From an uncultured Candidatus Saccharibacteria bacterium (lineage in GTDB: Bacteria > Patescibacteriota > Minisyncoccia > UBA6257 > 1-14-0-10-44-23): a stretch of 64,000 nt of DNA. The notes beneath the pieces were generated by a model. The model searched no databases, had not been told where the DNA came from, and was given only the letters and a program-made list of their open reading frames with translations. A program made the position numbers and the translations under genes. The stretch is from positions 191,066 to 255,065 of the forward strand of contig CAZJVT010000002.1 in assembly GCA_964549935.1 (NCBI GenBank), written 5' to 3'. This document shows, one piece after another, positions 1,671 through 33,662 of this stretch (positions within the stretch are counted from its first letter, which is position 1; each line of letters opens with the position of its first letter).

Positions 1671-1695
1671 GACTTAAACCTAAAAACATACTCAC

Positions 1696-1727
1696 AAAGC
1701 CGCCTCGTTAAAAGGCGGCTTTGTGTT
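1696..1727 (+). terminator. Rho-independent terminator-like hairpin after gyrA
   Basis: aaagccgcc-tcgttaaa-aggcggcttt stem-loop followed by a T-rich run. Confidence 0.5.
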
Positions 1728-1739
1728 ATCATTAACTCT

Positions 1740-3053
1740 ATGCCTCCGCGTTTTACTCGTACGCAAATTGTTATTGCCGGCATTGTTCTGGCAATCATAC
1801 TGCTCGTCATCCTCATCGCCACCGGCATTATCCCGGGCCTTCGGCAAAAACAAACCGGTGACAAGTTAACCGGCGATCTCACCGTTTGGGGAGTTTTTGA
1901 TGATGAGGTCGCCATCAACAGCACCCTCATAACCGAATTCCGCAACAAACACCCTCAGGTAAACATCACCTATAAAAAAATTGACGAGCGCAGCTATGAA
2001 AGCGATCTCGTTAATGCGCTTGCCGCCGGCACAGGTCCGGATGTATTCATGGTTCAAAACACCTGGCTGCCGAAGCATTACAACAAGCTCTCGCCTCGTG
2101 ATCCAAAGCAGTTCAATCTGGTTAACTTCGGTGAGCTATACCCGCAGGTCGTAGTCAAAGATTTTTCGAAGGACGGCAAAGTTTATGCCATGCCGCTGTA
2201 TGTCGACACGCTTGCGTTGCTTTACAACAAAAACTTGTTTGACGCCGCCGGTATTGCCCAGGTTCCAAAGAGCTGGGACGACCTGGTAAACGCGATCCCA
2301 CTACTGCGCCGATTAGATGACGGCGGTCGGATTTCACAAGCCGCAGCGGCTATCGGTGGCAGTACTCGTACGATTAACGGCGCCAACGACTTGCTCTTCC
2401 AGCTGATGATGCAGTTCGGTTCACAGATGACCAATGAACAACACACCTCGGCTAACTTCGGCTATTCCGGCAAGCAGGCGCTGGATTACTACTTAAGCTT
2501 CGGCAACCAGCGCAGCCCGGCATACACCTGGGATTACGGCGTCCACTATTCAATCGATGCCTTCGCCGAAGAATCAGTGGCAATGCTTTTTAATTATGGG
2601 TATCAACTCCAGCAACTAAAAGAAAAAAATCCCTTCCTGCAAATTGGCGTCGCGCCGATGCTACAAAAAACGGGTACGACGAAGCCTATCACCTACGCAA
2701 ACTACTTCGGCTTGGGCGTTTCGGCGACGAGCAAAAACAAAACACTTTCTTGGCTCTTCGTCGACGAGGCAACCGTTGATCCTGCAACGAATGCAAAATA
2801 TTTAAACGCCACCCACCGATCCCCCGCGCTACGATCACTGATTGCGACTTCGATGAACGACCCGGAGGTTGGCGTGTTTGCCAGGCAGGCTCTCCAGGCC
2901 AACTCCTGGTACCAGGGCGACAGCACCGAAGTTAACAGTACGTTTACCTCTATGCTAGACTTAATCGTAAGCGGCCAATTGAGCACGAGCCGCGCCCTTG
3001 ACCAGGCGGAACAGCTCGTAACCGAGTCTTTGCGCAAAACCTCGGGCCAATAA
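1740..3053 (+). CDS. Extracellular solute-binding protein (ABC sugar-uptake type, SBP family 1)
   Basis: N-terminal transmembrane anchor followed by a solute-binding-protein-like domain (TVWGVFDDE.., GTGPDVFMVQNTWLPK, YAMPLYVDTLALLYNKNLF); 437 aa. Confidence 0.65.
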   Translation: MPPRFTRTQIVIAGIVLAIILLVILIATGIIPGLRQKQTGDKLTGDLTVWGVFDDEVAINSTLITEFRNKHPQVNITYKKIDERSYESDLVNALAAGTGPDVFMVQNTWLPKHYNKLSPRDPKQFNLVNFGELYPQVVVKDFSKDGKVYAMPLYVDTLALLYNKNLFDAAGIAQVPKSWDDLVNAIPLLRRLDDGGRISQAAAAIGGSTRTINGANDLLFQLMMQFGSQMTNEQHTSANFGYSGKQALDYYLSFGNQRSPAYTWDYGVHYSIDAFAEESVAMLFNYGYQLQQLKEKNPFLQIGVAPMLQKTGTTKPITYANYFGLGVSATSKNKTLSWLFVDEATVDPATNAKYLNATHRSPALRSLIATSMNDPEVGVFARQALQANSWYQGDSTEVNSTFTSMLDLIVSGQLSTSRALDQAEQLVTESLRKTSGQ

Positions 3054-3054
3054 T

Positions 3055-3537
3055 ATGAAACTTCGACCAGCCAAACTCTCGCTCGCGATTTTACTGCTAA
3101 GTAGTATTTTAGTGACGGCAACTCCAGCCATTGTCGCGGCGGCAGATTTAGATGTTAACCCGGCAACGACCAGCTTGGCTAACGGCATTATGCCTGCTTG
3201 CGACCCGGGTTACAGCGATTTAAAGGGTGGGACGATAGGGCCAAAGGGCCTCCCTGCCTGCGGCGTGACGCAAGCCCTTCAGCTTATCTATAACATCATA
3301 AAATACGTTACTTACATCATCATCCCTATCGCCGTATTGCTCATTGGTTACGCCGGGTTTACGATTATGACCTCCGCCGGAGAGGCTGAAAAGATAAGTC
3401 AGGCGAAACACATGATCCAGCTCCTGGCTATTGGCATCGCTATTATTCTTCTCTCGACACTTATCGTTCAGTACGTATTTAAAGCAGTTGGCGTGCAGTC
3501 GACTAATATAACTAATATCACGCCGGGTGCGAAATAA
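3055..3537 (+). CDS. TrbC/VirB2-like T4SS-type pilin, paralog 1
   Basis: signal peptide, two hydrophobic helices, conserved core YAGFTIMTSAGEAEKISQAKHMI; the mature N-terminal region carries a Cys pair. Confidence 0.6.
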   Translation: MKLRPAKLSLAILLLSSILVTATPAIVAAADLDVNPATTSLANGIMPACDPGYSDLKGGTIGPKGLPACGVTQALQLIYNIIKYVTYIIIPIAVLLIGYAGFTIMTSAGEAEKISQAKHMIQLLAIGIAIILLSTLIVQYVFKAVGVQSTNITNITPGAK

Positions 3538-3538
3538 T

Positions 3539-3886
3539 ATGAAATGGCTCACCTCGATTTTCTTGCTTCTTGGAACTAAGCTCGCTTTTGCCGCAGACAA
3601 AGTCACTCTTCCCAATCCCCTCTGCCCTGAAAATGATCCGACCTGTAAAACCTCTCTCCCGGATATCATTCACAGCGTTTTTCATTTTTTGGCAATCGAC
3701 ATTGGCCCGCTTGTGGTCATCATTTTCGTACTTGTTGGCGCCTACCAGATGATTTTTAGCGGCGGCGAAGCGGAAAAATTCACAAAAGGTAAAACTACTA
3801 TCGTTTACACCGTCGTCGGTTACGCCGTCCTCTTAATGGCCAATGGTATTGCCGCGATTATCCAAACAATCTTAACCGGTAAGTAA
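3539..3886 (+). CDS. TrbC/VirB2-like T4SS-type pilin, paralog 2
   Basis: start taken as the ATG at 3539 (the ORF-track start at 3527 is GTG); motif AYQMIFSGGEAEKFTKGKTTIVYTVVGYAVL. Confidence 0.6.
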   Translation: MKWLTSIFLLLGTKLAFAADKVTLPNPLCPENDPTCKTSLPDIIHSVFHFLAIDIGPLVVIIFVLVGAYQMIFSGGEAEKFTKGKTTIVYTVVGYAVLLMANGIAAIIQTILTGK

Positions 3887-3889
3887 TAC

Positions 3890-4234
3890 ATGCAAACTAT
3901 GAAAAGACTTGCAGCAAGACTGACTGTGCTCGCCTTGACCTCAGCCCCACTTCTTGCCTTCGCCCAAGACGTCGGCGATGACGGGTTGCCGAAAACGACG
4001 AAGGATGTTATGACCATACTCGGCCGAATCGGCGACTGGCTTTTTACCGGACTGCTCATTATAAGTGTTATAATGTTGATAGTAGCCGGATACAAGTATT
4101 TGTTCTCACAAGGAAGCGAAGAGCAGACGACCTCGGCAAAAAATACTATTGTTTATGCGGTTATTGCCCTAGCGGTGGCAATGCTAGCCGGTGGAATCCC
4201 GTATCTCGTCAAGTCAATCCTTCAAGTTAAATAA
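3890..4234 (+). CDS. TrbC/VirB2-like T4SS-type pilin, paralog 3
   Basis: signal peptide; motif GYKYLFSQGSEEQTTSAKNTIVYAVIALAVAML. Confidence 0.6.
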   Translation: MQTMKRLAARLTVLALTSAPLLAFAQDVGDDGLPKTTKDVMTILGRIGDWLFTGLLIISVIMLIVAGYKYLFSQGSEEQTTSAKNTIVYAVIALAVAMLAGGIPYLVKSILQVK

Positions 4235-4256
4235 AAATAAATAACATTAATATCGT

Positions 4257-4679
4257 ATGAAGAAATTATTGACAGCTCTCGCGCTCGCTGGAATTACGCT
4301 AAGTTTCGCCGCACCTCTCGTCCTTGCTCAACCGGCGGGATCAATTACCTGCCCTACGGGCATCTCTGTTTCGGCTGGCACGCCCTGCCCATTACCAGAC
4401 AAAATCCTTGGCGGCGACGTAACAAATCTTGGCGGTGGCAGCTTTGTTGCTTTACTTCAGACGATTACTAACTGGATGTTTACTTTCCTGCTAGTGTTCG
4501 CTGTAATCATCTTCATCTACGCAGCTTATAAGTATCTTTTCTCTGGAGGCAACGAAGAAGGCACAACTGCCGCAAAGAACTACCTCATTTATGGCGTTAT
4601 CGCTATCGCAGTTGCGATGATGGCAAAAGGTATAACCTTTATCGTCGCCGAACTCTTAGGAGCAACGACTACGAAATAG
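4257..4679 (+). CDS. TrbC/VirB2-like T4SS-type pilin, paralog 4
   Basis: signal peptide; CPTGISVSAGTPCP Cys pair; motif AYKYLFSGGNEEGTTAAKNYLIYGVIAIAVAMM. Confidence 0.6.
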   Translation: MKKLLTALALAGITLSFAAPLVLAQPAGSITCPTGISVSAGTPCPLPDKILGGDVTNLGGGSFVALLQTITNWMFTFLLVFAVIIFIYAAYKYLFSGGNEEGTTAAKNYLIYGVIAIAVAMMAKGITFIVAELLGATTTK

Positions 4680-4704
4680 TTTTTTTTCTGTAACTGTATC
4701 CACT

Positions 4705-4728
4705 AAAAACCGCCTTCGGGCGGTTTTT
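4705..4728 (+). terminator. Rho-independent terminator after pilin paralog 4
   Basis: aaaaaccgcc-ttcg-ggcggttttt perfect hairpin followed by a T-run; the high-GC block starts immediately downstream. Confidence 0.7.
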
Positions 4729-4838
4729 AGCTTGATATAAAAACGACAGAAGCCCGGCCGGTGACATCCTCCCTTTTGGGGAGGAGCACCGAACCGGGCT
4801 TCAACTGCGCGTCGCCTTACGTCGACGCGCGAACGACT

Positions 4839-5387
4839 CTACCAGGCTTCTACGCTGAAGCGCTGGTTCACGGCCCTGACCTGAACGTAGAACGTCCCGG
4901 TCGAAGTCGTATCCCAAGCTATCCCGGCCCGAGCTTCGAATGGGTTGCCGTCCCCATTCTCAAGCAGGACCTGATAGCCCAGGTTGTCCGGCGCTCGAAT
5001 CTTGAAGCGCATGCCGCCGGAGACATGCACTCTGACCCACTGCCCGGGAAGCAGTGCGTCGGGAAACGACTTTTCTCCCGGAGAGTCCAGCGTCACGCTC
5101 GCGACCGGAACTTCCGGCGGAGTGTGCGCTTTCGGTGTGTGACTCGCCGCCACACCGACTGCGGCTTCCTTCTTGACTGCCTGCTCGACCGTGAAGTCGT
5201 GCGGCAGTTCAGGTGCAGTGGGTTTCCGGCTCTGGTAGAGCAGGTAGACCGCCGCGCCAATCAGCGCCCCCCAGAGGAGAAAGTACCTCAAGAGAACGAC
5301 CGCCCCCGGAAACGGGGGTTCCATCCCCTTCGGCAGCCGCCCTGCGGACTCCGCCTCGGGCGTAGCAGCATGTGCGTCGCCGCTCAT
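4839..5387 (-). CDS. Hypothetical membrane-anchored protein (high-GC cassette A, gene 2)
   Basis: 182 aa with one transmembrane helix (VVLLRYFLLWGALIGAAVYLLY); about 65% GC; its start overlaps the stop of the upstream gene by 4 bp, suggesting translational coupling. Confidence 0.55.
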   Translation of the reverse strand: MSGDAHAATPEAESAGRLPKGMEPPFPGAVVLLRYFLLWGALIGAAVYLLYQSRKPTAPELPHDFTVEQAVKKEAAVGVAASHTPKAHTPPEVPVASVTLDSPGEKSFPDALLPGQWVRVHVSGGMRFKIRAPDNLGYQVLLENGDGNPFEARAGIAWDTTSTGTFYVQVRAVNQRFSVEAW

Positions 5388-7216
5388 CGCGTACCTCCTC
5401 TTCTGCCAGCGAGTTCGCGCAGCGTCACGATGACGTCAGCGCCGATGCCGTTCGCGGTCACGATCTCCTCGTGAACATCCCGCTTCACGACACCGTCTTC
5501 GGCCAGGACAGCCTCTCTCGCCTTCTGCTTGATCTCGTCGCTCACTCCTGCGAAGGCAGTGAGCGCCTCCAGGTCCGTCACCTTGTCCGGTGACGCCCAG
5601 CGAGCCATGCGCAGCACCCGATTATTGGTCGTAACCAGGTCGGCGCCGGCCTTGTTCTCGGCTTCCAGTCGCTTGAGATCTTTCTGGATGAGAGCGACCG
5701 AACGAGCAACAAGAATCTCAAGCCACTTCCCGGTGGGCATGAGCTTGGTCAGGTTCAACCGCGTGATGATCACGCCGAAGACCTTGACCTTGATGTGCGC
5801 CCGCCCCTGCTCGAGGGCGTCCGCCATCTGATCCCGCGCCCAGAGGTAAGCCTCGAGGCGCTGGCCAACAAACTGCTTGGCCGCGGCCAGGTCACGGTAT
5901 CCCATCCCGGCCACGACCGCGAGGATCTTGGCCTTGACGGCGTCGATCGTCTTGAAGTCGGATCCCTTGAGATCCTCCTCCTTGACGTCTTCGCGGTGCC
6001 AGAGGCGCACCAGGAACGTCGGTACGCCCGGGACGACCTCCTTGGGCTTCGCCAGGAACTTGCGCTTCGCCTTCGCGACGCGCTTCTCCTCGGCGCGAAC
6101 CTCCACGGGAGTCGTGGGTGCGACAGGCGGGACAGGCGAGACGAACACGAGGTCCGCGCCCAACTCATTCGCACCGAGATGGTGCTCGTGAGCCCAGTGC
6201 GCGATGTGCCCCGTGATGACCGGCCAGAATTGATCCGGATACAGCTCCTTGACGATCGCCAAGGCGCCGCGACGGATTGCTCCGGGGACCTCCTCGCCGT
6301 ACTGCGGCCCGCTTGTGGGCGAGCGCAGCCACCGACGATACGACTCATTGAGCTGGTCGATCAGCTTCGGCAAAACGCCGGCAATGAACCCCTCATGCTT
6401 GAACGGCAAGAGACGGTTCGAGTCAGCCATGATGCCGATGCCCAAGTTGCCCGTGAAGGTGCTGTCCTCCGGGCCGAGAATCGGTTCCTCCTTGGAACCG
6501 ATGCAGGGATTGAAGTCCCCACCACTTACGTCCACCGGCTCCGGCTTGAACAGCCACCAGAGCAGCGGAATGCGAGCGCGACCTTCGAGAGGCTTGATCG
6601 CCGAAAGCATGATCCCGTTGAAGTCCAGGAATGCCTTCGTTTCCGGGTGTGATACCGAAAACCGCGCATACCCCTCGAACTTGTACGCGTCGTACAAGAC
6701 CCAGGAGATGATCGGAGCCGCGACGAGCGCCAGAGGCAACCAAGCCCCCATCGCCAGACACAGCACGATCGCGATTACAGTCCCCACCACGAAGCAAACA
6801 GTCCGAGCCCGCGCGTCGAACTCGGCGAGAATCGGGCCGAACTCCAGATGCGGGATCACGTCGTGGTGACCTCCCCCGCCAGGATGTTCGTCGTCATCGC
6901 CGAGTTCGGCGTGAGCACAGTGCCCCCGCGAACAGTTGATCGCCTCCTGCAGATGCGTGAGTGGTGGCCAGAGCCACCCCATCGCGCGCCCGACGTTGAA
7001 GGACAGCGGTGCGCCGGGCGGCGCAGCCGTACCGCGCATCTGCCACCAGCGAACCAGAGTATAGACGTTCAGCCCGATCGCCACGAAGGCGCCGAGCAGG
7101 CACGCCAGCTTCACCCAGGGATTCATCGTTCCGCGATCGGAGATCGCAGCGTACAACGAGTACGCAGCGCCGACGAACGCAGCGACGAGACCAACGAGCT
7201 TCAGGATTCTACGCAT
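5384..7216 (-). CDS. Hypothetical multi-pass membrane protein with His/Asp-rich loop and C-terminal coiled/SPFH-like region (high-GC cassette A, gene 1)
   Basis: 610 aa; N-terminal transmembrane helices; HAELGDDDEHPGGGGHHD loop; C-terminal region with IKVKVFGVIITRLNLTKL and KDLKRLEAENKAGADL, reminiscent of band-7/SPFH; about 65% GC; spurious antisense ORFs appear across it. Confidence 0.55.
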   Translation of the reverse strand: MRRILKLVGLVAAFVGAAYSLYAAISDRGTMNPWVKLACLLGAFVAIGLNVYTLVRWWQMRGTAAPPGAPLSFNVGRAMGWLWPPLTHLQEAINCSRGHCAHAELGDDDEHPGGGGHHDVIPHLEFGPILAEFDARARTVCFVVGTVIAIVLCLAMGAWLPLALVAAPIISWVLYDAYKFEGYARFSVSHPETKAFLDFNGIMLSAIKPLEGRARIPLLWWLFKPEPVDVSGGDFNPCIGSKEEPILGPEDSTFTGNLGIGIMADSNRLLPFKHEGFIAGVLPKLIDQLNESYRRWLRSPTSGPQYGEEVPGAIRRGALAIVKELYPDQFWPVITGHIAHWAHEHHLGANELGADLVFVSPVPPVAPTTPVEVRAEEKRVAKAKRKFLAKPKEVVPGVPTFLVRLWHREDVKEEDLKGSDFKTIDAVKAKILAVVAGMGYRDLAAAKQFVGQRLEAYLWARDQMADALEQGRAHIKVKVFGVIITRLNLTKLMPTGKWLEILVARSVALIQKDLKRLEAENKAGADLVTTNNRVLRMARWASPDKVTDLEALTAFAGVSDEIKQKAREAVLAEDGVVKRDVHEEIVTANGIGADVIVTLRELAGRRGGTR

Positions 7217-7698
7217 CTCTGTCTCCTCGACCCGCCTATGGCGGGTCAGAATATCTGACCCGCACCGCGGGCCTCGGTTTGGGTCCCGAGACCCTTTACC
7301 CGCGTCACAACAAGTGACGTTAGGGTCCCTCGTCTCCTGCTACCCCGCAATGGGGCAGGCCACGAAACAGGGATTTTGGGATCGATCATCGATTTTCGAC
7401 CCCAAAACTCCTGCTTCGTGCTTCAGAACACGAGAGATCCCTCAAAACCTAAGTTTTAAGGGCTTTTTAGCCCTCCTCCAATGAGGTTAAGGCGCTGTCA
7501 AAGAGCGGTCTTTACTGAACATATAGTATAGCATACTAATACTAATTTGTCAAGTATTAGGCGCTTTTTGCACTTTTTGGTCAATCAGTAAAAATCACGA
7601 ACAAATAAGCTCAAGTTTATCCACTGCCCTGCTCAAAAATAACTTCACGTATGTTATACTGAATGTAACGAATTAATTTTTACTATTAAAAACATCGT

Positions 7699-8046
7699 AT
7701 GAAGAAAACGTTACTCGCTCTTAGCACTATCGCAATGGTCGGACTGACTCCGCTCGCCGCTTTTGCAGTTGATATTCCGGCTACCACACCTGGCCCGGGC
7801 ATCCGCAGCTTCGAAGGCATTCTTAATGTGCTCGACACCGTCATCAACTGGATGTTCACGCTCCTGCTCGTTATGGCAGTAGTTATGATCATTTACGCCG
7901 CGTTTAGCTACTTGACCGCCGGCGGTGACGAGGAGAAGGTTGGCAAGGCGCACAAGGCTATCATCTACGCCGTCGTCGCTATCGCCGTCGCCTTCCTCTC
8001 AAAGGGCATCTCGTTCGTCGTCGCACAGCTTTTGGGGCAAGGATAG
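7699..8046 (+). CDS. TrbC/VirB2-like T4SS-type pilin, paralog 5
   Basis: signal peptide; motif AFSYLTAGGDEEKVGKAHKAIIYAVVAIAVAFL; separated from paralogs 1-4 by the high-GC insert. Confidence 0.6.
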   Translation: MKKTLLALSTIAMVGLTPLAAFAVDIPATTPGPGIRSFEGILNVLDTVINWMFTLLLVMAVVMIIYAAFSYLTAGGDEEKVGKAHKAIIYAVVAIAVAFLSKGISFVVAQLLGQG

Positions 8047-8142
8047 TACGTGTAACGTTAGACGTGAAACTTGCAACTTTCAAAACCGCGACGCCAGTCG
8101 CGGTTTTGATTTTGGGGCGAAAATAAGCGATACTACAACAAT

Positions 8143-8223
8143 GCTGGGGTGGCGAAATGGCAGACGCATCAGCCTTAGGAGCTGAAGCCGCGAGGCATGT
8201 GGGTTCAAGTCCCACCCCCAGCA
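8143..8223 (+). tRNA. tRNA-Leu (anticodon TAG)
   Basis: manual fold: acceptor GCTGGGG/CCCCAGC; anticodon stem TCAGC/GCTGA with loop CTTAGGA; 13-nt variable arm; T-arm GTGGG-TTCAAGT-CCCAC; discriminator A; CCA not encoded. Confidence 0.8.
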
Positions 8224-8371
8224 CAAAAACCAAAACACGGCCTTTAGGTCGTTCTTTGGTTTTTGTGCTTAGATGGACTTGAATCGTCGGACCGGAAATT
8301 TTCAGTATAAAATTTCGGGGAGAGGGTGCCCAGACCAACTGGGCGCGACGGCGCACAGTTGAGTCGAGGGC

Positions 8372-8390
8372 AAGTCCCACCCCCAGCACC
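8372..8390 (+). repeat. 19-bp direct repeat of the tRNA-Leu 3' end (att-like)
   Basis: caagtcccacccccagcac at 8372..8390 matches tRNA positions 8205..8223 exactly; the copy is followed by cca. Confidence 0.6.
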
Positions 8391-12106: not shown

Positions 12107-12679
12107 TTACCTTGCGAGGTAGATAATAAAGCCAACGGCGATCGTGTTGATAACGAAGGAAACGAGCATAATGTAGCGCATTCGCAGGTGCGTAAGTCCC
12201 ATCATGCTAAGGCCAAGTTCATCCGGCAGTGGTGAGGCTATAACAAGGGCGCCGAAAAAGATTGCGGCAACTCGGATGAGCCACGAGGAGGCAAATTTTT
12301 CGAATGTCCCATGTGTCCTTTTGACGAGATACTCGAAAAGCTCATCGAGCATGCTGACTTTAACGGCGGCGATTAATCCGGCGTCGCCCAGCATCGCTCC
12401 CACTCCCCCCAGGAGCGCGATACTGTAGAGTGGCAGCGCGCCATCACGGGCAAGAACGATAAAAATTGCCAACGAGAGTGGCGTCGTTGAAAACGAAGTG
12501 AAGCAAAGCCCCCCGATAAAGGCCATCAGCAGCAGCCACCCGCCGCCAAGAGCCGCCCACTTATCGAGTAATCCGGAAACGACAAGCAGGTATGATGCCG
12601 TAATTATAAACGCAACGAGCACAAAGTAGGTCATGTGCCGCAGCGTGAAAATCTTTTTAAAAATTTGCCCTGTTGTCAT
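12107..12679 (-). CDS. DedA/VTT-family-like integral membrane protein
   Basis: 190 aa with 4-5 transmembrane helices and Gly-rich membrane segments; family assignment is tentative. Confidence 0.4.
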   Translation of the reverse strand: MTTGQIFKKIFTLRHMTYFVLVAFIITASYLLVVSGLLDKWAALGGGWLLLMAFIGGLCFTSFSTTPLSLAIFIVLARDGALPLYSIALLGGVGAMLGDAGLIAAVKVSMLDELFEYLVKRTHGTFEKFASSWLIRVAAIFFGALVIASPLPDELGLSMMGLTHLRMRYIMLVSFVINTIAVGFIIYLAR

Positions 12680-17032: not shown

Positions 17033-17872
17033 ATGACTCAAGAACTTCCGACTGCAACCGTGCGTCCGATGCTTGAAAATCCTACGACCCTTCTTAAGAA
17101 GGCTTGGCAGCTGATGCTTGCTAATGCCGGCGTTCTTTTTACATTAAGTCTTGCTCCGTTAGTTTTTGCTTTTTTCGTCGGTCTTTTAGCGGCCGGCTCA
17201 AAGCCTGCTACGGTTATCGGCGGGATCATTGCGGGCATCGTCCACGTTCTGACGGCAATTGCTGTCATAGCGGTACTCAATGCTCGATCAACCGGCGAGA
17301 CGAAAACTATTAGCCAAGCCTATAAAGTCGCTCTCGAACGGTTCCTCCCGCTTGTTTTGACGGGCCTACTCATTGGCCTAGCTAGCTTCGGCGGCATGCT
17401 CATCTTTCTTCTCCCGGGAATACTTATAGTTATTTGGGCTTCGTTTGCTACTTACATCGTCGTACTCGAGGAAATCTCCGGTCTCAAGGCATTCGTAAGA
17501 AGCGCTGCATACGTTAAAGACTACTGGGCTGCAATTTTTGGCCGCAATCTCTTCGTTGGTTTTCTGGCGATGCTGCCAATGATTGCTTTTTTCATCGTTA
17601 AGTTGATTGTGATCGGCGCGCAGACAAAAACCCCTGGGATGGATGCAGTCTTTAACTCGCTATACAGTTTTGCTATTACCCCGCTGCTCGCCTGCTACAG
17701 TTACCTCCTATATCGCAACATTATCCAAATCAAAGGTACTGAGCCGGTAGCACCGGCAAAGGCGCGTGGCGTAGTCATCACCTTCGCAATCATTGGCATT
17801 GTACTCGTAATCGCATTCGTCGGCCTAGCCGTCTCCGGACTAGGCACGCAACCGGCGATGCCGCTGCAATAG
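17033..17872 (+). CDS. Hypothetical integral membrane protein
   Basis: 279 aa with about 7 transmembrane helices. Confidence 0.5.
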   Translation: MTQELPTATVRPMLENPTTLLKKAWQLMLANAGVLFTLSLAPLVFAFFVGLLAAGSKPATVIGGIIAGIVHVLTAIAVIAVLNARSTGETKTISQAYKVALERFLPLVLTGLLIGLASFGGMLIFLLPGILIVIWASFATYIVVLEEISGLKAFVRSAAYVKDYWAAIFGRNLFVGFLAMLPMIAFFIVKLIVIGAQTKTPGMDAVFNSLYSFAITPLLACYSYLLYRNIIQIKGTEPVAPAKARGVVITFAIIGIVLVIAFVGLAVSGLGTQPAMPLQ

Positions 17873-19186: not shown

Positions 19187-20914
19187 ATGCAGAAACTCTC
19201 TAGCCGGCGGGGCTTTACCCTGCTCGAGCTTCTTATAACCATCGGGATTATCGCCGGACTCGCAACTGTGACTATCGTGGCCATTAATCCGAAGCGCAAC
19301 TTCAGCCAAGCTCAAAATACCGCTCGCCAAGGAGATTTACAAAAGATTCTGGGCGCCTTAAATCAATATGCGATAGAAAAAAACGGCTCCTTCCCTGCAG
19401 GGGTTACAACTACACTGCAAATGTTGGGCACGGCGACCTCGAGCTGCAATGTTGTTTGCGGACCGGATGCGCTGGTTACAATTGTAAGTAACTTTATCGA
19501 CAATAGCCTGCAAACCTTTGCCTCCGGAACACTTGCTAACACGCAGTGGAATCCCGCAACGAATGCCCTCGAACTTACGAATGCCGGGCTAACCGCCAAA
19601 ACCGGAACTTATACCAGCTCAATAAAAGATGCGAACGCTAGCCAAAACTGGACTACCCTTACCTGGACGCCGTATGCGCCATATAACAAAGAGTTACCGA
19701 ATGCCGCCGCGACAGAGACCGGCTACGTCACCGGTAATGCGGCAATGCCCGGCAATAAATTGCTGATGCATATGAACGAATCAAGCGGTGCCATCGTAGA
19801 CTCGTCCGGAAACAATCTTAACGGAACCGTAAACGGGGGCATCACCTACAACGTGACGGGGAAATTAAAAACTGCTCTCTCCTGGTCAGGCAGCAACAAC
19901 AACTATGTCTCCATAGCCAATAACGCCAATCTCAACCTGCCAAACACCGGCGGCAGCGTTGTCTTGTGGATGCAGCCAACTATCAACCTGGCTGCCAACA
20001 CCGGTATGGGCGTCATCCGCAAGCCTGACTATGGCGGCAACCTCAATACTCCCGGCGGCTACGGCATCGAAATCTTCCGCGCAGTCAGCAACGGGCCCCA
20101 AAACATAAAAGCACACCTCGGCTGGAACAACGGAGGGGCGAACTCGCAGCAAACGCTGGTTGGTGCGACGAATCTTGTAAGCGGTAGCTGGTATCACGTT
20201 GCGCTCACCTGGAATGCAACTACTATGACAATCTACGTCAACGGTGCGCAAGACACTTCGGCAGCTAGGGTTAACGGCCAACTCAACTGGGCCAGCAACA
20301 CCGCCAACCTGGACATAGCCCGCAACTCCAACTCCATCAGCAGTAACCGCGCCTGGTACGCCGGTGCGCTCGACGAAATAGCGCTCTTTAACCGCATGCT
20401 TACGGCGACGGAGGTGAACGATTTCTATAAACGTGGCTCGCTAAAGCTTCGGCAGCAGGTGCGCTCTTGCGACGACGCGCTCTGCGCCGGTGAGATTTTC
20501 ATCGGTCCCGGCGGAACCGGCGCCACATATTATGATGACCTGAACAACACGACAAATGCCCCGCCGAGCATGACGCTTTCTAATCTTGCCACCAACCGCT
20601 ATTTCCAATACAAAACTTACTTTGACACAGACACCGCCTCCTACGGCCCCGGGCTTTCAAGCATCAGCGGGGCTAATAATGGCAGCGGCACTATGAATAC
20701 AACCTCGACAGCGACGACCGCCAACAGCTGCCTCAACCTCGCACCAACCTTTGTGCCGAGCTACCTCCCCTCAATGCCGTTTGACCCGCTCGTCGGCTCG
20801 CTAGCAAAAACATATTACGCTGTTCAGAGCATCGATAACGGAGCAAATGGCATAGGCCTGATCATTCGCGCCTGTTATCCTGAACTCGGTCAACCGATAG
20901 AGACTAGACAATAA
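19187..20914 (+). CDS. Type IV pilin-like protein with prepilin N-methylation motif and LamG/ConA-like domain
   Basis: N-terminus RRGFTLLELLITIGIIAGLA (class III signal peptide); central region ..SGSWYHVALTWNATTMTIYVNGAQ.. lectin/LamG-like; 575 aa. Confidence 0.7.
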   Translation: MQKLSSRRGFTLLELLITIGIIAGLATVTIVAINPKRNFSQAQNTARQGDLQKILGALNQYAIEKNGSFPAGVTTTLQMLGTATSSCNVVCGPDALVTIVSNFIDNSLQTFASGTLANTQWNPATNALELTNAGLTAKTGTYTSSIKDANASQNWTTLTWTPYAPYNKELPNAAATETGYVTGNAAMPGNKLLMHMNESSGAIVDSSGNNLNGTVNGGITYNVTGKLKTALSWSGSNNNYVSIANNANLNLPNTGGSVVLWMQPTINLAANTGMGVIRKPDYGGNLNTPGGYGIEIFRAVSNGPQNIKAHLGWNNGGANSQQTLVGATNLVSGSWYHVALTWNATTMTIYVNGAQDTSAARVNGQLNWASNTANLDIARNSNSISSNRAWYAGALDEIALFNRMLTATEVNDFYKRGSLKLRQQVRSCDDALCAGEIFIGPGGTGATYYDDLNNTTNAPPSMTLSNLATNRYFQYKTYFDTDTASYGPGLSSISGANNGSGTMNTTSTATTANSCLNLAPTFVPSYLPSMPFDPLVGSLAKTYYAVQSIDNGANGIGLIIRACYPELGQPIETRQ

Positions 20915-24445: not shown

Positions 24446-24985
24446 CTACAGTCCAATTCGCCTGAGCAAGATTTCCGAAAGCCGCTCTTCGTACGCAAAC
24501 TCCGGGAGCTTAGATCCGATTGCGCGATCTACTTCAACAGCAATTGAACGCGGCATTAATATTTTTATATACTGCGCTGCTTTCTTTTTAGGCCTCAAAA
24601 CAAGCTCAACAAATCCCGTAGTTCGGTCATCAAGAACAGCAAAGGCAGCCAGATCAGAAAATCGATATACCAAACGATCATCAACGCTCACACCCTCATT
24701 CGTGATTTCATAACCGTAGAGCCTGGGCTTCTGCCTAGCAATAAAAAGTACCGTCACCTCCCCAATCGCAACAAATAAGAGAAACAAAAAATTCCGAACG
24801 TACAGCGCAAATAGCGCTACGACAATTGCAACGCCCAAGCTGACGAGGTACCACTTTGCGCTGCGCTCAACATAGTGGAACTCGGGCGAGGACCAGACGA
24901 GTTCTTGTTCGTTCGTAGTAGGCTCCATACCAAAAGTATACTCTATCTCCACTGCAAGAGGTACCTTTTGAGATGCGCCCTGCAA
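24446..24985 (-). CDS. Hypothetical membrane protein, tandem paralog 2
   Basis: 179 aa; ..ELVLRPKKKAAQYIKILMP..; paralog of 23898..24407. Confidence 0.5.
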   Translation of the reverse strand: MQGASQKVPLAVEIEYTFGMEPTTNEQELVWSSPEFHYVERSAKWYLVSLGVAIVVALFALYVRNFLFLLFVAIGEVTVLFIARQKPRLYGYEITNEGVSVDDRLVYRFSDLAAFAVLDDRTTGFVELVLRPKKKAAQYIKILMPRSIAVEVDRAIGSKLPEFAYEERLSEILLRRIGL

Positions 24986-25002
24986 TGGTGTATCATACCC
25001 CT

Positions 25003-26172
25003 ATGAGTAAGTGTTACTACTGCGGCAACAATCCGATTCCGCACCAATTTGCCAAAGCCAATGATGCAATGGCCAGCATCGTTGAGCCGTTCGACCGTTT
25101 CGCTCACCTGATCGGTCTTCACCGCTTAGTTGATTCACAATTCGTTCGAGTGATCGGGCCGATTATGTCCGGACTGACAAAAATTGGCATCGTAAAATTC
25201 AATGATGACGTCAGCAAGGCGAAGTCCTCGCGTTCAAAAGTAATTTGGGAGGAGGCGCAGCGGCGTGGAATCCCGATGCAACAACTGGTGATTTTTGGCA
25301 GCCACAGCGACTTCTACCGGGCGACCATAAACGGGACTCTCTACTACTTCGAAAGCCTACCCATCCCTCCGTCAGCCGACACGAGTGCGAACCAGTGGCT
25401 GGACGACAAAATGAAACTCAAAGAACGCCTTTTGGCGGCCGGTTTGCCGGCGGCGCGAGGCGGCGGCTTCCGCACATGGGCGGATATGAAACGCGTGTTC
25501 AAGATGCTGAAAAAGCCCGTTATTATCAAGCCGGCGCTGGGTTCTCGCGGTAGACACACAACTACATACATTTATGACGAAAAGCAGCTTAAAAAGGCGT
25601 TTAGGGTCGGCAAACAGATAACCGAGAAGCTGGTCATGGAGGAGCACCTGATTGGCAGCGTCTACCGGGCAACTATCGTGGATGGCCAGCTCGTTGGCGT
25701 GCTGCGAGGCGACCCACCGCGAATTACCGGCGACGGCAAACACACCATCGAGGAACTTGTTGAGCTCAAAAATCAAGCTAAACATGAGCTGGTTAAACCG
25801 GTAGAAATCACTCCGTATATCGAAGAATTTTTGAGCCGCAATAACTACGCCTTGGAGACAGTTTTGCCGAAGGGCAAGGCGATAGACCTGATGGAAAAAA
25901 TCGGCATTGGCTACGGCGGATACAAGGCCGAAGAAATTACTATCACACACCCCGAGACCAAGCGGATTCTTGAGGAAGCCGGCAAAGTTGTCAACTTCCC
26001 CGTGATGGGCTTTGACTTCATCATTCCGGACATCACCCGCCACCCGGACGAACAAGACTGGGGCATTATCGAATGCAACTCTCTCCCCTTTATCGACCTC
26101 CACCACTTCCCTCTCGAGGGCGCGCCGGTTAATGTCGCTGGCTACGTCTGGGATCTTTGGGCCAAATACTAA
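25003..26172 (+). CDS. ATP-grasp domain protein with N-terminal Cys motif
   Basis: VIIKPALGSRGRHTTTYIYDEKQLKKAF and EEHLIGSVYRATIVDGQLVGV are typical ATP-grasp segments; N-terminus MSKCYYCG; start chosen at 25003 to avoid overlapping the divergent neighbour (ORF track gives 24973). Confidence 0.55.
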   Translation: MSKCYYCGNNPIPHQFAKANDAMASIVEPFDRFAHLIGLHRLVDSQFVRVIGPIMSGLTKIGIVKFNDDVSKAKSSRSKVIWEEAQRRGIPMQQLVIFGSHSDFYRATINGTLYYFESLPIPPSADTSANQWLDDKMKLKERLLAAGLPAARGGGFRTWADMKRVFKMLKKPVIIKPALGSRGRHTTTYIYDEKQLKKAFRVGKQITEKLVMEEHLIGSVYRATIVDGQLVGVLRGDPPRITGDGKHTIEELVELKNQAKHELVKPVEITPYIEEFLSRNNYALETVLPKGKAIDLMEKIGIGYGGYKAEEITITHPETKRILEEAGKVVNFPVMGFDFIIPDITRHPDEQDWGIIECNSLPFIDLHHFPLEGAPVNVAGYVWDLWAKY

Positions 26173-26259: not shown

Positions 26260-27534
26260 ATGAAACGAGGCCTCATCGTCTTAGTATCAGCCACTGCGGC
26301 TCTTCTGTGCGCAGCATCCACTGCCCTTGCAGCGCCAGCGCTTAGTCAATCATCCGTCACTGTTGGCATAGGTCAGTCAACGGTTATAACCGCCCAGAAC
26401 CCAGTTACCCAAATTTACCGACTTAGCAACTCCAATCCGGATATTGCCGACCTACTCATAAACGAGTCTCAAATCACAATAACCGGCCGACAGTCCGGTT
26501 CAACTGCAATGAGCATCTGCTACGTTACGAGCAGCTCTGATTGCGCGGCACTTTCGGTCACTGTTACCACCGGACAGACAACTAATACTACGAACAATAG
26601 CGGAGGTCTTTCGTTCAATCCCCAAAATCCGACCATTATGCCCGGGCAGACGCTCCCGGTTACTATCTCCGGAGGCTCCGGCTACTTTGTGAGCAGTAAT
26701 TCAAACCCGGATATGGTCCCGGCATCAATCAACGGCAACCAAGTAAGTGTTTCCGGAAACCAAGTCGGCGCCTCAACAATTACGATTTGTTCGTCGACGA
26801 ATGTCTGCAGTGCGCTCAAAGTAACCGTAAGTACAAGTGCCGGCAGCACAACCGGAGTGACATTTAGTCCAACAAATCCCACCCTTGCTGTCGGCCAAAC
26901 GCTGAGCGTAAGCATCGGCGGACAAAGCTCGACCTACTTCATCTCGCTTAATTCAGCCCCGAGCCTCGTGCAAGCAACCATTAATGCAAACAACGTAAAC
27001 ACCTTAGTCCTCTACGGACTTGGCACAGGCTCGGCCTCAATCACCGTCTGCGGAAATTCAGGAGGATGCACCACGCTGCCGATTACAATAACCGGGACAG
27101 CCGCGACAACCCCAATCGCCCCAACCCCTACTCCTGTAACCACGCCGCCGGTAAACACAGGCGTCTCTTTACTCTCGGTGATTCAGGCGATGCAGGTTCA
27201 ACTCGCCCAGCTTCTGGCCCAGGTCCAGACAATGGCAACTGCTCTTAACCAGCTCGCAGCAAGCACAGGCGCAACTGTCTCTCCTAGTACAAATGCCGGC
27301 AGCGCTACAATAACTAAATTTACCTTCACTCAACTTCTCGATATCAATTCAGAAGGTGCCGAAGTCACCGCTCTACAGAAGAGATTGACCGAGCTTGGTC
27401 TTTACTCGGGTCCAATCACCGGCCGCTTCGGTGCGCTCACTCAGGCTGCGGTTAAGAAATTCCAGACACTTCACGGTATCGACGCCAAAGGCTTCGTAGG
27501 ACCGGAAACGCGCGCGACACTGAACGCACAGTAA
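26260..27534 (+). CDS. Secreted protein with four tandem Ig-like repeats and C-terminal peptidoglycan-binding domain
   Basis: signal peptide; about 90-aa repeats (SNSNPD..I.G.Q.G..TI..C.......C.AL.VTV) x4; Pro/Thr linker; C-terminal LQKRLTELGLYSGPITGRFGALTQAAVKKFQ. Confidence 0.6.
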   Translation: MKRGLIVLVSATAALLCAASTALAAPALSQSSVTVGIGQSTVITAQNPVTQIYRLSNSNPDIADLLINESQITITGRQSGSTAMSICYVTSSSDCAALSVTVTTGQTTNTTNNSGGLSFNPQNPTIMPGQTLPVTISGGSGYFVSSNSNPDMVPASINGNQVSVSGNQVGASTITICSSTNVCSALKVTVSTSAGSTTGVTFSPTNPTLAVGQTLSVSIGGQSSTYFISLNSAPSLVQATINANNVNTLVLYGLGTGSASITVCGNSGGCTTLPITITGTAATTPIAPTPTPVTTPPVNTGVSLLSVIQAMQVQLAQLLAQVQTMATALNQLAASTGATVSPSTNAGSATITKFTFTQLLDINSEGAEVTALQKRLTELGLYSGPITGRFGALTQAAVKKFQTLHGIDAKGFVGPETRATLNAQ

Positions 27535-29596: not shown

Positions 29597-29860
29597 ATGA
29601 CTATTCAAAAACAAAAATTGATTCGCCGACTAAAAATCGTCGAGGGCCAGATCCGTGGGTTACAGAAAATGATTTCTGAAGACAAGTACTGCATAGACGT
29701 TATTACCCAAACCTCTGCCGTGAAACAGGCGCTTTCCAACATCGAAGACGCCCTCATGGAAAGCCACCTCGGCCACTGCGCTATCAACCAAATTAAAAGC
29801 GGACAAACAGACAAAGCTGTCCGTGAAATTCTGAAAGTTTATACTTTAAAACGTAAATAA
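29597..29860 (+). CDS. csoR: CsoR/RcnR-family copper-sensing transcriptional repressor
   Basis: 87 aa; the metal-ligand pattern ..YC..H..HC.. (YCIDVITQ, HLGHC) is typical of the DUF156/CsoR family. Confidence 0.8.
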   Translation: MTIQKQKLIRRLKIVEGQIRGLQKMISEDKYCIDVITQTSAVKQALSNIEDALMESHLGHCAINQIKSGQTDKAVREILKVYTLKRK

Positions 29861-29915
29861 TTAATTTGATGACGGTCAAATTATCCTGAGTCACCAGACG
29901 AAGGATCTACCTACT

Positions 29916-32228
29916 ATGAATCACGACCAAACTTTTGATATCAAAGGAATGCATTGTGCGTCGTGCTCTGCCATTATCGAAAAAACGCTCAAGAAACAAC
30001 CCGGCGTTATTTCTGCGCAGGCAAATTACGGCACCGAAAAGGCAAAGGTTTCGTTTGACGACGGCAAGATAAGCGCAGAGCAGCTATCAAAGAGCGTTGA
30101 GCCACTCGGATACTCGCTCGTCATGCCGAAGATGCCAACGCCGGGCTCGGCGTCCTCAATGGGCATGTCGGAAGACGAGCACGCGGCACACCTCGGGCTC
30201 AACCAATCCAAAGATGAGAAGTTGCTCGAACTAAAGGCCGTAAAACGCAAAGTTCAGTCAGTTATCCCGCTGGCGGCCTTTAGTATTTTTATCATGGCCT
30301 GGGATGCGCTGGCGCAGTTCAAGGTGGTCCTCCCTCCCCCGGAGATATGGGAAACCTTTTTCCACCATCTGCTACCAATCTTCGCAACCTATACCCTCTT
30401 TGTCGTAGGCACCCCCTACCTGATGGGTGTTTACCGCTTCCTCCGTTACCGTAAAGCAAATATGGATACCTTGATTGGTATCGGCACGCTGGCCGCCTTT
30501 CTGTACAGCTTTGTTCTTACTGCCTTCGAGAATGCCCTACGCCCCTTCTTGGACGTGGGCCAGACTTATTACGACGTCGCCATCGTGGTCATCGCGTTTA
30601 TTACGCTCGGTAAATACCTGGAGATGCGATCGAAAATTAAAACCGGAGATGCTATAGAAAAACTCTTAAACCTTCAGGCCAAAACGGCTCTCGTTATCCG
30701 CGACGGGCACGAAATCGAATTACCTATCGGCGCAGTCAAGCACGGCGACCTGCTGATAGTTAAATCCGGCACAAAAATCCCGGTTGATGGCGTCATCACA
30801 GAAGGCTCCTCGTTTGTCGACGAATCAATGATGACCGGCGAGCCAATGCCGGTTGAGAAGAAATCCGGCGATTCAGTCGTGGCTGGCACACTCAACACCT
30901 CCGGAAGCTTTACGTTTAAGGCAACGAAGGTCGGCTCCGAGACTCTCCTCTCGCACATCATCAAAATGGTGGAGGAGGCCCAAAGCAGCAAAGCACCGAT
31001 TCAGGCGCTTGCCGACAAAATCTCGGCTATCTTCGTACCCATCGTTATCGCTATCGCCTTTTTAACCCTCATACTCTGGATTATTATCGGCAGCCAGTCG
31101 TTCGGCTTTGCTCAAGCACTCTCCTACGGGCTGACCTCATTCGTTGGAATTCTCGTCATTGCCTGTCCCTGCGCTCTTGGCTTAGCAACACCAACAGCGA
31201 TTATCGTCGGCGTCGGTAAAGGCGCGCGAGAAGGTATCCTTATTAAGGATGCGGCGACGCTGCAGGAACTCCACAAAGTAACTGTACTCGTCGTCGACAA
31301 AACCGGCACGATTACCAAGGGCAAACCGGAACTCACCGCGCTTGAACCACTTGGTGATCTTTCTGAAGAAAAAATACTCGCTCTCCTTGCGGCGCTGGAA
31401 AGTCGCTCTGAACACCCGATTGCCCACGCCATCCTCTCTGCTGCTAAAGCACGCGGTATTGCATCAGCAAGTGTAGAAAACTTTGAAATGCTCAAAGGCA
31501 AAGGCGTGAAGGCAACGATTGGAGGTGTCGAGTACTTCGCTGGCAATGCACTCCTCATAAAAGAACTTGGGCTTACCTTTACTACCACCTCGCTCGATCG
31601 CGGCGCTAAAGAGGGCAAAACGCCTATCATCCTCGCAACTGCAAAGCAGGTTATTGGAGTAGCTCTCGTGAGCGATGCAATTAAGCCGGAGGCCAAAGAG
31701 GCGGTCGCCAAACTCCACAAGCTTGGCGTTAAGGTTATTATGGCCACTGGTGATAACGACGATACCGCCCGCTTTATTGCCAAGCAGGTTGGGATTGATG
31801 AGGTTATCGCGCATGCTCTGCCACAAGATAAGTTGGCTAAGATTAAAGAGCTCCAAAGTCAGGGTTTTGTCGTGGCTATGGCCGGTGACGGCGTCAACGA
31901 CGCTCCGGCGCTTGCGCAGGCCAATGTGGGCATTGCAATGGCAACCGGCACAGACGCGGCCATTGAGTCTGCGGGCATCACTCTGCTTAACGGCGATCTT
32001 TCTCGCCTCGCGAAAGCCATTCGGCTTTCGAAGCTGACGATGCGCGGTATAAAACAAAATCTTTTTTGGGCGTTTATTTATAACGTCGTCGGGATTCCTC
32101 TCGCCAGCGGCTTGTTTTTCCCCTTCTTCGGCTGGCTGCTCTCCCCTGTCTTTGCCGGCGCGGCGATGGCCTTCTCGAGCGTCTCAGTTGTCGCCAACTC
32201 ATTACGATTAAAAACTAAGAAATTATAG
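29916..32228 (+). CDS. copA: Copper-translocating P1B-type ATPase
   Basis: N-terminal HMA domain ([11 protein letters not shown]), CPC motif ([11 protein letters not shown]), DKTGTIT phosphorylation site, [10 protein letters not shown]; 770 aa. Confidence 0.9.
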
Positions 32229-32230
32229 TT

Positions 32231-33241
32231 ATGCAAACCTATACCTTCCATGTTCACGGTATGCATTGTAACGCGTGTGTACTGCTTACTGAAGAAAATT
32301 TAAAGGAGGCTCTCGGCGTCTCGGCAGTCAAAGCCAATCTTGCAAATCACACCGTCATCGTAACCGGAGAATTTACAGAACCAGCCGTAGAAATAGCTAA
32401 GCGGCTTTCGAAGTTGATGCCCGAGGGCTACTCTATCTCACTTGAAAAGCAAATCATCAAACCGAAGTGGCAGGAGTTTACCTATGCCCTGCCGATAGCA
32501 GTGGTGCTTATCGCCGGATTTTATTTCCTCCAAAAAGCTAATCTGGTCAACCTTATAGGTAGCGGCACCGTAAGTTACGGCACGGCGCTCCTGGTCGGCC
32601 TCATCGCCTCGGTATCGAGCTGCCTGGCAATTGTGGGTGGGCTCGTCCTCTCACTTTCCGCGAATTACGCCAAAGATGGTTCGCGCGTAAAACCGCAACT
32701 CCTTTTCCACATTGGGAGACTTGGCGGCTTCTTCGTCCTTGGTGGTCTGATCGGCCTCCTCGGTAAGTCTTTCGCGCTTGGAGCAACCGGTTCGGTCATT
32801 CTCGGCATCATCGTCGCCGTCGTGATGCTCATTCTCGGCATTAACCTACTCGATGTCTGGCACGGGGCCAAACGTCTTCAGCTTGCGATGCCTAAGGCCT
32901 TCACGCGCCGAGCCTTTGGCAGCAAGGCAACACAGGTATACGCCCCGCTCCTGCTCGGTCTTGCCACTTTCTTCCTCCCCTGTGGGTTCACCCAGTCAAT
33001 GCAGGTGTATACGCTTTCGACAGGAGGCTTCCTCGCCGGCGGACTGACAATGCTCGTCTTCGCACTTGGCACACTACCGATGCTCGCCCTGCTTTCATTC
33101 AGCTCGATGAATATTATGCAAAAGTCCTGGAATGGCGTCTTCTTTAAAACTGCCGGCCTTATCGTCATCGCCCTCGCAGTGTTTAATCTGATTAACTCAT
33201 TAGTGGTTGCCGGCATTATCGATCCCGTGTTTAACTTTTAA
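32231..33241 (+). CDS. HMA-domain fusion to a multi-pass permease (TauE/SafE- or CcdA-like)
   Basis: N-terminal HVHGMHCNACV HMA domain followed by about 6-7 transmembrane helices; 336 aa. Confidence 0.55.
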   Translation: MQTYTFHVHGMHCNACVLLTEENLKEALGVSAVKANLANHTVIVTGEFTEPAVEIAKRLSKLMPEGYSISLEKQIIKPKWQEFTYALPIAVVLIAGFYFLQKANLVNLIGSGTVSYGTALLVGLIASVSSCLAIVGGLVLSLSANYAKDGSRVKPQLLFHIGRLGGFFVLGGLIGLLGKSFALGATGSVILGIIVAVVMLILGINLLDVWHGAKRLQLAMPKAFTRRAFGSKATQVYAPLLLGLATFFLPCGFTQSMQVYTLSTGGFLAGGLTMLVFALGTLPMLALLSFSSMNIMQKSWNGVFFKTAGLIVIALAVFNLINSLVVAGIIDPVFNF

Positions 33242-33263
33242 CAGAGAACCTATTAATAATCTA

Positions 33264-33662
33264 AATATGGTTGATAAAAAAATTGGAGCCTCAATAATCA
33301 TCAGTGTCGCTATCATAGCTGGAGCGCTATTTCTCGCCGGTGGCAGCTCGCGCCAAGACGCCGGGGTTCAGGCGCAGCAAGCGACGATAGTAGACGGCAA
33401 ACAAATTGTCGACATCACCGCCCGCGGCGGCTACTCCCCTCGTCTTGTGAAAGCGAAGGCCGGCGTGCCGACCACGATTCGAGTAACAACTAAAGATACC
33501 TACGACTGTTCCGTCAGCCTCGTCATCCCGAAGTTAAGCTACAAGAAATTCCTCGGCCCAACCGGCACAGAAGAAATCGCAATTTCACCGGACCAAGCAA
33601 AAGGGACCTACAACGGCTTGTGCAGCATGGGAATGTATTCGTTTAAGGTAGTTTTTGAGTAA
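33264..33662 (+). CDS. Membrane-anchored cupredoxin-like protein
   Basis: signal/anchor then beta-rich domain ending GTYNGLCSMGMYSFKVVFE; last gene of the copper operon; start at MVDKK (ORF track starts at 33207). Confidence 0.45.
   Translation, partial: NMVDKKIGASIIISVAIIAGALFLAGGSSRQDAGVQAQQATIVDGKQIVDITARGGYSPRLVKAKAGVPTTIRVTTKDTYDCSVSLVIPKLSYKKFLGPTGTEEIAISPDQAKGTYNGLCSMGMYSFKVVFE

Follow-up and report, generated by a model that had tools for sequence, protein, structure and literature searches.

Divergent pilin-like genes of type IV secretion arrayed behind a solute-binding-protein gene in a Patescibacteria chromosome

Arrays of VirB2-like genes are known from Patescibacteria, where 441 arrays of 2-11 genes, with a mean identity of 25% and a maximum of 54%, have been reported from 383 assemblies, and where a pilin gene lies near virB4 in 1,135 of 1,948 assemblies (PMC12102498). 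In S. epibionticum the array is located inside its type IV secretion system (T4SS) cluster and is essential for epibiotic growth (PMC10633639; PMC12857230). Here we analyze a 64,000-nucleotide stretch of contig CAZJVT010000002.1 (the window), which contains five small genes, P1 to P5. Judged from their predicted products, they form a genuine chromosomal array of pilin-like genes of the type IV secretion kind, divergent from one another, in an ultrasmall bacterium of the Patescibacteria. Pilin arrays of Patescibacteria were already described in 2023-2025, and the present locus is a further example. The only part that may be new is the linkage of the array to a binding-protein gene beside gyrA, which is not mentioned in the published accounts of pilin arrays (PMC12102498, PMC10633639, PMC12857230, PMC11665869). 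The five genes, with products of 114-160 amino acids, are all on the plus strand and lie where the first-pass annotation of the window had placed them:

3055..3537, plus strand: P1, pilin-like protein of 160 amino acids; PF18895 30.6 bits; exposed N-terminal segment of about 40 amino acids, with Cys49 and Cys69
3539..3886, plus strand: P2, pilin-like protein of 115 amino acids; PF18895 32.6 bits, TrbC 26.0 bits; Cys29 and Cys36
3890..4234, plus strand: P3, pilin-like protein of 114 amino acids; PF18895 38.1 bits, PF04956 30.3 bits; no Cys
4257..4679, plus strand: P4, pilin-like protein of 140 amino acids; PF18895 34.1 bits; exposed segment CPTGISVSAGTPCP
7699..8046, plus strand: P5, pilin-like protein of 115 amino acids; PF18895 41.5 bits; no Cys

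The start of P2 (ATG 3539) was taken from an independent gene call on contig L007, which is identical to the window; an alternative GTG start at 3527 would give 119 amino acids. Because positional orthologues of P1-P5 are present in related genomes, we regard the five as real genes and not chance open reading frames (ORFs). A hidden Markov model (HMM) built from P1-P5 picks out exactly these five of the 332 window ORFs (E 1e-42 to 3e-51), and no sixth pilin copy was found among those ORFs with it.

The array shares the families PF18895/PF04956 with the published Patescibacteria arrays (Quinonero-Coronel et al. 2025, PMC12102498; S. epibionticum ML1 SEML1_0006-0019, Wang et al. 2023, PMC10633639; the 'Sec-secreted array' of TM7x). 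It also resembles them in its phylum-level host, its tandem genes and its low identity, which is 22-54% in pairwise comparisons of the P1-P5 paralogues. The S. epibionticum array is embedded in the T4SS cluster, whereas here and in 82 related loci of Paceibacteria type the pilin genes stand beside gyrA and behind a binding-protein gene, and T4SS genes are absent from the surrounding 10 kb. Published arrays are sometimes broken by one non-pilin gene, whereas here two genes set off P5, which lies 3 kb from the four contiguous genes, a layout slightly beyond the published description of an array.

More distant systems offer partial parallels. Bartonella and Anaplasma phagocytophilum carry several divergent virB2 copies that have been read as surface variation or as a means to a broader host range, a likeness drawn by description (PMC12102498); unlike the present host, these are diderm intracellular animal pathogens with a VirB/D4-type machine. 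Agrobacterium VirB2 (T-pilin), RP4 TrbC and F TraA are, like P1-P5, small proteins with a signal peptide and a two-helix hairpin, and they are linked to them by PF04956 similarity (P3 above the cut-off), but they are single-copy, are encoded inside a transfer operon and belong to diderm hosts. NCBIfam NF045849, the pilin-like protein Mbov_0395 of a Mycoplasma integrative and conjugative element (ICE), comes from monoderm hosts with mating-pair formation of the FATA type (MPF-FATA), thought to be the source of the Patescibacteria T4SS.

The first-pass annotation had proposed TrbC/VirB2-type pilins, and searches with the Pfam HMMs bear out a T4SS pilin assignment for all five genes. Each passes the gathering threshold of PF18895 (T4SS_pilin; 26.6 bits) with 30.6-41.5 bits, and no unrelated family outscores the T4SS pilin families for any of them. 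PF04956 (TrbC/VirB2) ranks second for P1-P3, scoring 30.3 bits for P3, 26.0 for P2 and 16.7 for P1 at a cut-off of 27.9 bits; it gave no match to P4 or P5 at E<=1. NF045849 is the best NCBIfam match for P1, P3, P4 and P5 and spans the whole hairpin (E 1.5e-7 to 4.7e-4), with scores of 19.8-31 bits that fall below its 40-bit cut-off, so that the four proteins are not members. All 77 database homologues of P5 carry PF18895, and the family is very large, a P1-P5 profile matching 54,818 clusters (50% identity clusters, E<=1e-3). The type IV pilus N-methylation motif PF07963 has no match in P1-P5. A profile search of PDB sequences detected no sequence similarity to solved pilins, and in fold searches with the P5 model, which any helical hairpin matches, the match to solved pilins was not significant.

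The shared architecture is that described at first. In hydropathy plots each of the five proteins has a hydrophobic N-terminal segment with an A-x-A-type end, as in a signal peptide, followed by two long hydrophobic segments. The AlphaFold model of P5 (mean predicted local distance difference test score, pLDDT, 79) is a helical hairpin with helices at residues 2-21, 38-73 and 78-111. The loop between the two long helices holds the conserved G-[ESND]-[EA]-E...[AG]-[KH] core. The longer motif that the first-pass annotation had written for the family matches none of the five proteins when used literally as a regular expression; a looser core, [YF]-x-[YIM]-[LMI]-[FT]-[STA]-[AGQ]-G-[ESND]-[EA]-E-x4-[AG]-[KH]-x2-[IL]-[IVQ]-[YL], fits all of them, and only 8 alignment columns are invariant across P1-P5. 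Cys pairs had been noted in P1 and P4 and are present there (C49 and C69; C32 and C44), the P4 pair being kept in the orthologue from the related genome L001; the pair in P2 (C29 and C36) had been overlooked, and P3 and P5 have none.

The array lies directly behind the gene of a solute-binding-protein homologue, and the locus is framed by the following features:

1693..1725: G+C-rich hairpin of 13-14 bp, between gyrA (which ends at 1670) and the solute-binding-protein gene
1740..3053, plus strand: membrane-anchored extracellular solute-binding-protein homologue, 437 amino acids; SBP_bac_1/SBP_bac_8, Pfam 95 bits
4705..4728: intrinsic-terminator hairpin AAAAA-CCGCC-TTCG-GGCGG-TTTTT, where P4 and X182 converge, read from the sequence
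8083..8114, plus strand: intrinsic-terminator hairpin CCGCGAC-GCCA-GTCGCGG with a T run, 3' of P5, read from the sequence
8143..8224, plus strand: tRNA-Leu(UAG), the right-hand boundary of the locus

The stop codon of the binding-protein gene is 1 nt before the start of P1, and the gaps between P1 and P4 are 1-22 nt. This tight packing, together with the hairpin before the first gene and the terminator after P4, indicates that the binding-protein gene and P1-P4 are one operon; in this predicted unit the binding-protein gene is the first gene and the array the distal part. The hairpin at 1693..1725 is likely a bidirectional terminator separating gyrA from the operon. P5 stands apart from P1-P4 with its own terminator. 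The binding-protein homologue is only weakly similar to carbohydrate-binding equivalogs.

The last 19 nt of the tRNA-Leu(UAG) gene (8206-8224) are repeated exactly at 8371-8389, 165 nt downstream, with about 0.01 chance matches expected. The second copy is followed by CA and so ends in CCA; it resembles a remnant of a tRNA 3' half or an old attachment site, and it lies just before the Xer-like recombinase gene.

The window is otherwise ordinary chromosome, with the 3' end of gyrA and genes for an Xer-type recombinase, RmuC, RNase Y, HU, IF-2, ribosomal proteins, TsaD and tRNAs. The genomes nearest to it in synteny carry the labels Ca. Harrisonbacteria, Patescibacteria or Paceibacterota, and their GyrA is 85-89% identical. 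From these sequence comparisons the host is a Parcubacteria/Paceibacteria-type bacterium near Ca. Harrisonbacteria.

Searching one genome per species with an alignment of the P5 family gave 79 related loci, in which we compared the number of paralogues as had been proposed at annotation. Almost all of them contain 3-8 tandem pilin ORFs. A binding-protein homologue is directly upstream of the pilin array in 67 of the 79; gyrA is upstream in 57 and an Xer-like recombinase downstream in 39. In 61 of these 67 loci the start of the first pilin is less than 50 nt from the stop codon of the binding-protein gene; the median gap is 3 nt. The reciprocal check gave the same picture: three of three binding-protein homologues chosen regardless of pilins (43-50% identical) sit between gyrA and runs of PF18895 genes. 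The layout of gyrA, binding protein, pilin array and Xer recombinase is thus conserved, and we therefore take it to be an old, vertically inherited operon and not a mobile element. Among the relatives, inteins with a LAGLIDADG endonuclease occur in a GyrA (1,315 amino acids; L090 5910-9857) and in a DNA polymerase III alpha (L089 1-2117); the gyrA fragment of the window shows no intein.

The five genes do not evolve alike. Orthology with the two closest genomes, L001 and L003, is positional and one-to-one, and the identities are:

P1: 52% to L001, 41% to L003
P2: 64% to L001, 38% to L003
P3: 62% to L001, 29% to L003
P4: 52% to L001, 43% to L003
P5: 72% to L001, 73% to L003
Housekeeping neighbours (GyrA, recombinase, RmuC): 75-85% to L001, 84-89% to L003

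Compared with their orthologues, P1-P4 show 25-54% identity, with indels, in the N-terminal segments predicted to be extracellular and 34-70% in their cores, whereas P5 shows 79-86% identity and no indels in its exposed segment. The faster divergence of P1-P4 is found mainly in the exposed parts. The G+C content at third codon positions (GC3) is 0.69 in P5, as in the housekeeping genes, and 0.49-0.53 in P1-P4. The diversified repertoire with divergent exposed regions that was first proposed for all five genes is borne out by P1-P4, with their low identity and indels, and not by P5, the most conserved member. We infer that P5 is a core structural subunit and that P1-P4 are accessory subunits showing variable knobs. 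Antigenic or receptor variation, as first suggested, would be only one among the possible readings of the P1-P4 diversity.

One P1 orthologue has a Cys-rich N-terminal extension of about 270 amino acids. Pilins of the relatives more generally include forms with Cys-rich extracellular N- or C-terminal extensions of 100-330 amino acids and up to 22 Cys, usually one or two per array (L009, L011, L012, L016, L033, L036, L051, L055 and others). The window organism and the relative L003 occur in the same sequencing runs, SRR14271332 and SRR14271336 (Logan contigs L004-L008), which indicates that two related lineages with very different variable pilins coexist.

P4 and P5 are separated by a pair of fast-evolving minus-strand genes, X182 and X610, with the following features:

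4839..5387, minus strand: X182, single-pass membrane protein, GC 0.64; weak similarity to its positional counterparts in L001 and L003
5384..7216, minus strand: X610, membrane protein of 610 amino acids, GC 0.63; sits where sister genomes encode divergent SPFH/Band-7-like proteins
7361..7420, minus strand: perfect 60-nt hairpin CACGAA...TTCGTG in the X610 leader of about 300 nt; -36 kcal/mol
7525..7553, minus strand: promoter-like site TTGACA-17-TATACT (11/12, with TG) upstream of X610; same sequence in L003

The similarity of X182 to the genes at its position in L001 and L003 has E values of 4e-6 and 1e-3. The larger gene of the pair is SPFH/Band-7-like in many loci, including L001 (94%) and L003. 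X610 has no match in Pfam, NCBIfam or PADLOC and finds only itself among 5.8 billion clusters; its single-sequence AlphaFold model is unusable (pLDDT 39), and an SPFH assignment is not supported for X610, with hhalign against the SPFH-like neighbours giving a probability of 0.2-0.3%. Between the window, L001 and L003 the larger gene has diverged past recognition by BLAST. The G+C content of X182 and X610 is 0.63-0.64 against 0.52 for the window, and the pair in the window, L001 (7763-9495) and L003 (7685-9378) has a GC of 0.59-0.64 and a GC3 of 0.69-0.81 over a background of 0.49-0.52. More distant relatives have either a contiguous array or the equivalent pair placed behind the last pilin; a local rearrangement in the sublineage of the window therefore moved P5 past X182/X610. 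The hairpin in the X610 leader may be a structured regulatory leader: its position and closing bases are kept in L003 (9486-9545), where the inner stem is wholly different yet complementary (covarying), and L001 has a variant. Rfam found nothing in the intergenic region at 7.2-7.7 kb but a chance miRNA-hairpin match far below threshold.

In our view the VirB2-like hairpins are probably exported and polymerized by a VirB4 machine into a host-contact pilus or conduit, with P5 as its bulk and P1-P4 as its specificity subunits. The Sec-type signal peptide would be cleaved, and the hairpins would lodge in the membrane, their two ends facing outward. A monoderm-type, VirB4-powered T4SS encoded elsewhere in the genome, of the kind expected in most Paceibacteria and usually near dnaA, would then extract and polymerize them. 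The product would be a pilus or conduit at the contact with the host cell, in which P5 would form the bulk and P1-P4 would be accessory subunits whose variable, disulfide-stabilized knobs confer contact specificity. The co-transcribed binding protein may act at the same surface, either capturing ligands or partnering the filament. In part of a published survey table (Table S1 of PMC12102498), the Harrisonbacteria rows and most of the Paceibacteria rows are VirB4-positive.

Several points weigh against a secretion pilus. The TrbC/VirB2 cut-off is reached by P3 only. As the first-pass annotation had stated, the window is without VirB4, VirB6 and VirD4: Pfam scans of about 50 of its ORFs found none of them, and no other T4SS family, in the 64 kb. 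Nor was any of the three recognized in the 82 related loci at a distance of up to 10 kb from the array. The role of the Patescibacteria T4SS has been called unknown (PMC11665869), and a pilus of the VirB2-like array type has never been seen in any Patescibacterium. Fusions of 2-8 hairpins would also be awkward for a model in which the pilus is built one subunit at a time. No VirB4-like cluster was seen among the large ORFs of the 79 related loci, in a survey that used no Paceibacteria VirB4 query.

Window ORFs without a Pfam match encode proteins of 563 and 415 amino acids (53495-56409, minus strand), 266 (58418-59218), 190 (12107-12679) and 279 (17033-17872); NCBIfam gave no match for the 563- and 415-residue proteins and only a far sub-threshold one for the protein of 279. 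Nowhere else in the window could an unrecognized T4SS part hide. The fused proteins, or poly-pilins, are single polypeptides of 2-8 tandem pilin hairpins with one N-terminal signal peptide and no internal stops. They include the database proteins P0078 (606 amino acids), P0079 (552) and P0081 (820) and most of the best 150 of the 54,818 family matches, and they are not mentioned in PMC12102498. Because each hairpin has both ends outside, the topology of such a chain is self-consistent. The existence of these fusions has a bearing on the choice between a pilus subunit and a membrane oligomer for the module.

An unlikely alternative is that the hairpins form a T4SS-independent membrane oligomer that works with the binding protein, for example as an uptake or envelope device replacing a permease. 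The closeness of the first pilin to the binding-protein stop codon (within 50 nt in 61 of 67 loci) speaks for such a device, as do the lack of an ABC importer permease, of which none was found in the window and none is conserved near the related arrays, the lack of a recognized VirB4 in the 10 kb around each of the related arrays, and the occurrence of fused proteins with 6-8 hairpins (12-16 membrane helices). These points are countered by the family similarity to TrbC/VirB2 and conjugative pilin-like proteins, by the Saccharimonadia arrays of the same kind that lie inside a T4SS cluster, by the published proximity of a pilin gene to virB4 (1,135 of 1,948 assemblies; PMC12102498), and by the large Cys-rich extracellular extensions, which fit displayed subunits better than a permease. 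We give similarly little credence to the idea that the binding protein and the pilin array, beside gyrA and away from virB4, are a functional unit of their own in Paceibacteria, serving ligand or nutrient acquisition from the host and not secretion; the binding protein may then be a receptor or cargo-capturing partner of a filament or hairpin assembly, and the fused-hairpin proteins variants of the same device.

It is very improbable that the array serves antigenic variation as a recombination cassette, in which a single expressed gene would exchange segments with silent donors in the manner of Neisseria pilE/pilS or Anaplasma msp2. Several divergent copies are indeed clustered with a tyrosine recombinase gene nearby, but every copy is complete, with its own start codon and signal peptide, and the Xer-like recombinase keeps its syntenic position throughout the clade. 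We rejected the cassette on the one-to-one positional orthology between species and on the lack of DNA tracts common to the copies, between which the longest direct repeat is 23 nt at 78% identity. A remnant of a conjugative element or plasmid integrated at tRNA-Leu, to which the tRNA-Leu and tyrosine recombinase flanking P5, the 19-nt copy of the tRNA 3' end 165 nt downstream and the GC-rich gene pair that splits the array might point, is just as improbable, and an ICE, plasmid or phage origin was rejected, given that the order of gyrA, binding protein, pilins and recombinase is kept in dozens of divergent genomes, that the window has no relaxase or T4SS ATPase, that tblastn with P5 gives no match among 72,556 plasmids or 50,697 phages, and that the recombinase scores as XerC/XerD/XerA type.

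Elsewhere in the window, two genes are related to the surface or to type IV pili and are distinct from the VirB2-like array: that at 19187-20914 encodes a 575-residue protein with a type IV pilin N-methylation motif and a Laminin_G_3 lectin-like domain, and that at 26260-27534 a 424-residue protein with T2SS-T3SS_pil_N and a peptidoglycan-binding domain. A metal cluster at 29597-33662 comprises a CsoR-type repressor (Trns_repr_metal), a cupredoxin-like protein and proteins of 770 and 336 amino acids, each of which starts, by eye from the sequence, with a GMHC-x-x-C metal-binding motif. The 399-residue ATP-grasp protein encoded at 24973-26172 resembles cyanophycin synthetase in its ligase portion (E 1e-50, well short of the cut-off for the full-length protein) and has no Pfam match at E<=0.001.

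Few systems have been shown to be essential to a Patescibacterium living as an epibiont, and the T4SS with its pilin array belongs to them. The locus brings no new kind of system, and its comparison with relatives offers testable handles: one conserved pilin, several fast-evolving pilins with exposed, Cys-stabilized segments, a tightly coupled binding-protein gene and a stable chromosomal position away from virB4. These handles point to a probable structural subunit and to probable contact-specificity subunits, and they suggest that the pilin array may be connected with ligand capture.

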